Origin: Escherichia coli
Lineage (GTDB): Bacteria; Pseudomonadota; Gammaproteobacteria; Enterobacterales; Enterobacteriaceae
Assembly: GCF_009931435.1 (NCBI RefSeq)
Contig: NZ_CP043414.1
Length of the DNA: 64,000 nucleotides
Strand: one strand, 5' to 3'
In this document: one piece after another, positions 35,600-36,170 of the stretch
How the letters are laid out: every line of letters begins with the position of its first letter
How positions within the stretch are numbered: the stretch's first letter is position 1
Notes under the pieces: generated by a model
Database searches by the model: none
What the model was told of the DNA's origin: nothing
What the model saw: the letters and a program-made list of their open reading frames with translations, nothing else
Program-made: the position numbers and the translations under genes

Positions 35600-35626
35600 A
35601 CAAAAAACCCCGCCGAAGCGGGGTTC
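35600..35626 (-). terminator. rho-independent terminator of the tRNA operon
   Basis: aaccccgccgaagcggggtt hairpin; on the minus strand it is followed by a T-run (plus strand caaaaaa), immediately 3' of tRNA-Pro. Confidence 0.6.
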
Positions 35627-35631
35627 AAAAT

Positions 35632-35708
35632 TGGTCGGCGAGAGAGGATTCGAACCTCCGACCCACTGGTCCCAAACCAGTTGCGCTACCAAGCTGCGCT
35701 ACTCGCCG
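35632..35708 (-). tRNA. proM: tRNA-Pro (anticodon UGG)
   Basis: Reverse complement gives CGGCGAGUAGCGCAGCUUGG...GGUCGGAGGUUCGAAUCCUCUCUCGCCGACCA with cloverleaf and CCA end. Confidence 0.9.
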
Positions 35709-35750
35709 AAATACTGCTTTTTGAATTTTTAGTTCAATTCTTTAAAGTCG

Positions 35751-35837
35751 TGGTGCGAGGGGGGGGACTTGAACCCCCACGTCCGTAAGGACACTAACAC
35801 CTGAAGCTAGCGCGTCTACCAATTCCGCCACCTTCGC
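35751..35837 (-). tRNA. leuT: tRNA-Leu (anticodon CAG)
   Basis: 87-nt class II tRNA; reverse complement begins GCGAAGGUGGCGGAAUUGGUAGACGCG and ends ...CCUCGCACCA. Confidence 0.9.
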
Positions 35838-35857
35838 ATTGTCACAACTTCTAATAA

Positions 35858-35934
35858 TGGGGTGGCTAATGGGATTCGAACCCACGACAACTGGAATCAC
35901 AATCCAGGGCTCTACCAACTGAGCTATAGCCACC
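35858..35934 (-). tRNA. hisR: tRNA-His (anticodon GUG)
   Basis: Reverse complement GGUGGCUAUAGCUCAGUUGGUAGAGCCCUGGAUUGUGAUUCC...GCCACCCCA, with the extra 5' G typical of tRNA-His. Confidence 0.9.
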
Positions 35935-35991
35935 ACTACAAATCTTGTTACGCGGTATTACTACCACCGCAGCTCAAGCGCCGGGACTAAA

Positions 35992-36068
35992 TGGCGCGCC
36001 CGACAGGATTCGAACCTGAGACCTCTGCCTCCGGAGGGCAGCGCTCTATCCAGCTGAGCTACGGGCGC
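35992..36068 (-). tRNA. argX: tRNA-Arg (anticodon CCG)
   Basis: Reverse complement GCGCCCGUAGCUCAGCUGGAUAGAGCGCUGCCCUCCGGAGGCAGAGGUCUCAGGUUCGAAUCCUGUCGGGCGCGCCA. Confidence 0.9.
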
Positions 36069-36170
36069 TTAGCGCCGTTGCGGGGGTGGATAATACGGAC
36101 TTCCCACCCCTCTGTCTAGTCCCTTTTTAAATAAATTGCGCGTTTGGTTACGGTTTGTGCGTTTTGCTGC

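Follow-up and report, generated by a model that had tools for sequence, protein, structure and literature searches.

Transfer RNA genes are common integration sites for mobile DNA, and the tRNA-associated island sites of Escherichia coli include leuX, pheV, pheU, selC, thrW, asnT and ssrA. A cluster of four tRNA genes in a 64-kb stretch of E. coli DNA (the whole of the stretch analysed, hereafter the window) raises the question of whether this site is also used by mobile DNA, and of whether the cluster itself belongs where it is found. We find that the locus carries no integrated mobile element. The tRNA operon at 35632-36068 on the minus strand is almost certainly the argX-hisR-leuT-proM operon of E. 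coli, chromosomal, native and uninterrupted, with thrP and aslB on either side. It is the known operon itself rather than a mere relative, and as such it is ordinary and already known.

ARAGORN detected four tRNA genes in the window, all of them on the minus strand and inside the interval originally reported for the operon. The original prediction gives no strand for the operon. Read along the direction of transcription, they specify Arg(CCG), His(GUG), Leu(CAG) and Pro(UGG). Their scores against RF00005 in Rfam ranged from 48.5 to 69.7 bits, compared with a gathering score of 29. The tRNA scan by the two programs thus returned exactly four genes, all intact and all with an encoded CCA end (4/4), as the original prediction had claimed. 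The names and the order given in that prediction were also right, each gene being 100% identical to its K-12 counterpart over its full length. The ARAGORN call for hisR (35858-35933) was one base short and left out the encoded G-1 at 35934. Such an extra G-1 is typical of bacterial tRNA-His, and the K-12 annotation of hisR is 77 nt long and aligns to 35934-35858. The operon supplies tRNA-Arg(CCG), tRNA-His(GUG), one of the four gene copies for tRNA-Leu(CAG), and tRNA-Pro(UGG). According to two reports, leuT encodes a tRNA-Leu(CAG) that is nearly the same as those from leuQ, leuP and leuV (PMC12472396; PMC2190699). An ORF of 82 amino acids on the plus strand (35484-35732), which overlaps proM and the terminator, was put down to chance. 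Coordinates of the operon, its control elements and its neighbours appear in Table 1.

Table 1. Features at the argX-hisR-leuT-proM locus and its flanks (positions in the window).
Feature	Position	Strand	Basis
pArgX promoter-like site, -35 TAGACA, 17-nt spacer, -10 TATTAT	36090-36118	(-)	consensus scan, 10/12 matches
Short 5' leader of the primary transcript (putative)	36069-36080	(-)	inferred
argX, tRNA-Arg(CCG), 77 nt	35992-36068	(-)	ARAGORN; Rfam 64.1 bits; 100% identical to K-12 argX; CCA
argX-hisR spacer, 57 nt	35935-35991	(-)	K-12 length and sequence
hisR, tRNA-His(GUG), 77 nt with G-1	35858-35934	(-)	Rfam 69.7 bits; 77-nt identity to K-12; CCA
hisR-leuT spacer, 20 nt	35838-35857	(-)	K-12 length and sequence
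leuT, tRNA-Leu(CAG), 87 nt, long variable arm	35751-35837	(-)	ARAGORN; Rfam 48.5 bits; 100% identical to K-12; CCA
leuT-proM spacer, 42 nt, A/U-rich	35709-35750	(-)	as in K-12
proM, tRNA-Pro(UGG), 77 nt	35632-35708	(-)	ARAGORN; Rfam 65.8 bits; 100% identical to K-12 proM; CCA
3' trailer AUUUU and Rho-independent terminator	35595-35631	(-)	terminator scan; fold; identical to K-12
thrP (formerly yifK), threonine/serine APC-family transporter	36171-37556	(-)	ORF; 96.2% identical to K-12 thrP; annotation of near-identical genomes
aslB, anaerobic sulfatase maturase	34253-35485	(-)	94% identical to K-12 aslB; ATG at 35485
ECA cluster, wecA to rffM/wecG	50527-37747		K-12 gene mapping

The operon of K-12 MG1655 (b3796-b3799, NC_000913.3 3982375-3982811) is 100% identical to the window over 35586-36175. 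A three-way alignment of the window, K-12 MG1655 and the best-matching genome, 2013C-4282, showed no difference from the stop codon of thrP to 10 nt beyond the T-run of the terminator. Gene order, anticodons, gene lengths, spacers (57, 20 and 42 nt), promoter hexamers, discriminator, terminator and the thrP/aslB flanks are all common to the window and K-12, and the intergenic gaps on the two sides of the operon are equal in both (102 nt between thrP and argX, 146 nt between proM and aslB). The differences lie outside this block: the stretch of roughly 110 nt from the terminator to aslB has seven substitutions, the aslB gene is one codon shorter, and the flanking coding sequences are 94-96% identical. 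Over the whole window the protein-coding genes are 93-98% identical to those of K-12, compared with 100% for the four tRNAs, glmZ (31827-31998) and rhoL. The best whole-region matches, at about 99%, are a handful of E. coli genomes (2020CK-00188, 2013C-4282 and WL297). Therefore, the window comes from an Escherichia lineage rather distant from K-12.

The site could be occupied or scarred by an element that targets tRNA genes, such as an island, a prophage or an integrative conjugative element, and the common use of tRNA genes for integration gives this reading a general prior, although only that. By our reasoning, only proM, the last gene of the operon, could plausibly provide an attachment site whose use would leave the operon in one piece; like the tRNAs of known island sites (leuX, pheV etc.), it has a free 3' end facing an intergenic region. 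We therefore looked for duplicated tRNA ends. Fragments of 14, 16, 20, 25, 30 and 45 nt from every tRNA 5' and 3' end were searched on both strands of the whole 64-kb window, allowing 0-9 mismatches (up to about 20%). Beyond the genes themselves, no second copy of any tRNA end fragment (14-45 nt) was present in the window, and hence no duplicated tRNA 3' end. A repeat finder run over 25000-47000 picked up the T-arm motif GGTTCGAATCC that the four genes have in common and short families due to chance, and nothing else. When 35590-36130 was compared with the window by blastn-short, matches beyond the shared T-arm motif were 13 nt or shorter, with E values of 0.4 or higher. The best of these stray matches, an inverted one of 13 nt inside wecF (E = 0.42), was rejected as chance. 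A permissive Rfam scan (E <= 1) of 20000-52000 gave no additional or partial tRNA; sub-threshold matches to rsmX and Plastid-ycf2, which overlap proM and hisR, were regarded as noise.

The surroundings of the operon likewise argue against an occupied or scarred site. There is no integrase beside the operon, whose adjoining genes are aslB and thrP, and no foreign gene lies next to it. According to the gene map transferred from K-12, the only tyrosine recombinase of the window is the housekeeping xerC (19422-20318), 15 kb away. A repeated tRNA 3' end with an integrase just outside the window is very unlikely, since the window reaches some 28 kb beyond the locus in one direction and some 36 kb in the other. 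Compared with related genomes, no extra DNA was found at the operon; the gaps have exactly the K-12 length and the composition is typical. When the literature was searched for proM as an integration site of islands, one unrelated review was all that came up. Taken together with the lack of tRNA repeats, these observations bear out the earlier claim of an unoccupied locus, and we consider occupation or scarring by a tRNA-targeted element to be extremely improbable.

The flanks, which had been described as native from the presence of aslB and yifK, proved to be so. They are collinear with K-12, and their GC content is 0.51-0.52 on either side of the operon, similar to that elsewhere in the window. 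The collinear block extends over 24223-58566, about 34 kb. The position of the operon, between thrP and aslB and downstream of the wec/rff ECA cluster, is the same in K-12 and in 2013C-4282. The ECA cluster had been called adjacent to the operon; it is indeed in the neighbourhood, but thrP intervenes, so that the cluster is one gene away. On the other side of the operon, K-12 gene mapping places aslA, glmZ, hemY, hemX, hemD and hemC. The codon missing from aslB lies just after the start (ATG CTA CAG vs ATG CTG CAA CAG in K-12), giving 410 amino acids compared with 411, and the 3-nt gap is also visible in an alignment with strain Ec-U4-19. For aslB we preferred the conserved ATG at 35485 over a TTG start that would give 420 amino acids (34253-35515).

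Several other elements were noted in the same neighbourhood. The convergent intergenic region between aslA and aslB (34079-34252) holds a long palindrome of REP/BIME type, with GCCGGATGCGGCG…CTTATCCGGCCTAC in inverted pairs and a predicted fold of -86 kcal/mol over 174 nt. It gave a reverse-orientation blast match to K-12 and sub-threshold Rfam matches to naRNA4 and ES036, and it is ordinary repetitive extragenic DNA. In hemX (29340-30545, plus strand), a tandem hexamer repeat of CACCTG/GCACCT units is found at 30454-30495, and the gene aligns to its K-12 counterpart with 24 extra bases (1206 vs 1182), which suggests that the HemX protein is polymorphic in the length of this repeat. Rfam also located two known RNA elements at their expected K-12 positions: the GlmZ sRNA at 31792-31998 on the minus strand, between aslA and hemY (218 bits), and the trxA 5'-UTR thermometer at 52653-52752 on the minus strand, upstream of trxA (78.8 bits).

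We further surveyed the locus in complete E. coli genomes. Of 5426 such genomes, 5420 have the 4 kb around the operon as one contiguous piece, and the 221-nt junction running from proM through the terminator to the region upstream of aslB is intact in the same proportion (5420/5426). Therefore, the operon is not an island hot spot in E. coli. At most five or six of the 5426 genomes have a broken proM-aslB junction, and one of them was inspected. This genome, the urinary isolate Ec-U4-19 (NZ_CM192135.1), gave the weakest junction match and does have an insertion directly past the T-run of the proM terminator, beside the hairpin, which might seem to favour the use of the site by integrative elements. 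The insertion (about 11300-11995, with tnpA at 11399-11857; equivalent to about 35595 in the window) is, however, an IS200C transposase element with neither an integrase nor a tRNA duplication, and it was rejected as evidence of tRNA-targeted integration. Unlike the tRNAs of island sites such as leuX and pheV, proM thus borders a junction that is almost invariably empty, and the hallmarks of an occupied site are absent. The original prediction had presented the empty locus as a useful negative observation. It is truly negative, but it carries little information, because the site is almost never occupied: more than 99.8% of complete E. coli genomes have it empty, which makes the result a true negative of low information for island hunting.

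The same survey bears on the origin of the cluster. Phages and islands do carry clustered tRNA genes, and the four genes could in principle be horizontally acquired cargo, for instance a phage- or island-borne tRNA array. Acquired cargo would not be expected from what is observed, namely a cluster that occupies the same position in 5420 of 5426 complete genomes, has core genes on both sides within the 34-kb collinear block, and shows no difference from K-12 despite a divergence of 2-7% in neighbouring protein genes, the pattern that strong purifying selection on a core gene would be expected to give. The probability of such an origin is in our view negligible, and we retain the reading of a native core operon.

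The control elements of this native operon were also compared with those of K-12. The pArgX site is the one sigma-70-like site upstream of argX, and its sequence is identical to that of K-12. A G+C-rich discriminator, CCACCCCCGC (36089-36080), lies downstream of it and an A+T-rich stretch upstream. Judging from its sequence, 36090-36118 probably functions as the promoter in the present strain. Transcription would start approximately 11 nt upstream of argX (about 36079), given the start of a published template and the position of the -10 hexamer (PMC3985628); the in vitro precursor of that study begins with AACGGCGCTAA, directly upstream of argX (PMC3985628). At the other end, the hairpin GAACCCCGC-UUCG-GCGGGGUUU starts about 3-5 nt past the CCA of proM. 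Its stem-loop (35626-35605, minus strand) consists of nine pairs, six of them G-C, and a loop of four, and is followed by TTTGTTTTCT, with the T-run at 35604-35595. The predicted fold has an energy of -16.6 kcal/mol (z = -2.9 compared with shuffles). These features, which together span 35626-35595, agree with the original prediction that the operon has a terminator. In the region scanned, the only other call resembling a terminator, at 36272-36253, falls within thrP. The genes are thus bracketed by one promoter-like site and one terminator hairpin, both predicted from sequence and both K-12-identical.

For the mechanism of expression we rely on published studies of K-12, whose sequence is identical here, bearing in mind that trans-acting factors could differ slightly (93-98% identity in the window). 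In K-12, pArgX is the promoter of all four tRNA genes and is regulated by ppGpp and DksA (PMC5137449). The genes are co-transcribed as one operon and separated by RNase E (PMC5291269), which cuts single-stranded A/U-rich spacer segments of the precursor, largely by direct entry (PMC3985628). RNase E cuts 3, 4 and 15 nt upstream of proM, and it forms the 3' end of proM in a single step, by a cut immediately behind the CCA that takes off the entire terminator (PMC5291269). The 5' ends of tRNAs are made by RNase P, according to two reports (PMC2190699, PMC7049720). By analogy, a single sigma-70 promoter in the present strain, pArgX, controlled by growth rate and by ppGpp/DksA, would give rise to one polycistronic precursor of about 480 nt, whose transcription would stop at the hairpin terminator after proM. 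RNase E would cleave the A/U-rich spacers and directly after the CCA of proM, RNase P would generate the mature 5' ends, and 3' exonucleases would trim argX, hisR and leuT to their encoded CCA. With the sequence unchanged, co-transcription, processing and regulation are most likely as in K-12, where the promoter regulation and the RNase E/RNase P processing of this operon are already well studied. The operons leuQ-leuP-leuV, glyW-cysT-leuZ and metT-leuW-glnUW-metU-glnVX likewise have one promoter and several tRNAs with encoded CCA, as well as A/U-rich spacers that RNase E cleaves and a hairpin terminator at the end; they differ in gene content and location.

Such processing leaves by-products, and one of them might act as a regulator in its own right, by sponging an sRNA or as a signalling fragment. 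This could apply to the 57-nt argX-hisR spacer, to the terminator fragment of proM or to 5' fragments of tRNA-Leu(CAG). There is a precedent, since the 3'ETS of the E. coli glyW-cysT-leuZ operon acts as an sRNA sponge. To our knowledge, such a regulatory spacer at the 3' end has been documented for glyW-cysT-leuZ and not for argX-hisR-leuT-proM. The glyW-cysT-leuZ operon is named together with its 3'ETS in a report that also describes abundant LeuT/V/P/Q 5' 19-mers with untemplated 3' extensions (PMC12472396), and the enzymes that degrade the proM terminator fragment have been described as unknown (PMC5291269). The perfect identity of the spacers to K-12, compared with the substitutions accumulated just past the terminator, could be taken as a further hint, but constraints on RNase E and RNase P processing sites explain this conservation equally well. 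Moreover, Rfam scans gave no family over the spacers. A regulatory role for any by-product appears very unlikely to us, and the narrower proposal by analogy, that a spacer or trailer fragment (the 57-nt argX-hisR spacer or the excised proM terminator) may act in trans as an RNA sponge or regulator, highly improbable. If true, it would be a property of the known K-12 operon, to which the window is identical here, and nothing special to the window.

DNA that is accessory relative to K-12 does occur elsewhere in the window, at 12628-14233, 22242-24299 and 1-530, none of it beside a tRNA. The islet at 12628-14233 lies between rarD and corA in place of yigF and yigG of K-12 and has a GC content of 33% (13001-14000). 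It contains a gene of the DUF3289/YPO3983 family (12855-13703) and a DUF943 gene (13700-14197), whose stop and start codons overlap. Of the 5426 complete E. coli genomes, 2618 have this version of the islet, which is therefore a common two-state polymorphism. The ORF at 22242-24299 (plus strand) encodes 675-685 amino acids, most likely from the ATG at 22272, with a lipoprotein-like N-terminus (…LVPSAWGC). It fills a 1.8-kb insertion between lptM (21880-22083) and cyaY (24347-24667), where K-12 has no such gene. Searches gave no Pfam match (E <= 0.01), no meaningful NCBIfam match and no PDB sequence match. Only five of the 5426 complete E. coli genomes have this allele. IAI39 and other strains have a form with about 80% identity, next to a DUF3304 gene, and there it bears the annotation 'hypothetical protein'. 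This ORF is probably the most interesting unexplored item of the window. The third segment, 1-530, is unmatched in K-12, which has ysgA beyond metE. It contains an ORF at 35-433 (plus strand) that covers a LysR-type substrate-binding domain (PF03466, E = 4e-16) in its C-terminal part only and is probably a gene cut by the edge of the window, or a remnant.

The strain-specific DNA of the two sites at 12.6-14.2 and 22.2-24.3 kb is not next to tRNA genes and would therefore be missed by tRNA-based island searching. The operon itself matters mainly as a landmark. It ties the window, which is in reverse orientation, to the place on the E. coli chromosome that corresponds to about 3.98 Mb in K-12, and it confirms as core genome the region that leads from the hem genes, by way of the asl genes and the tRNA operon, to the wec genes.
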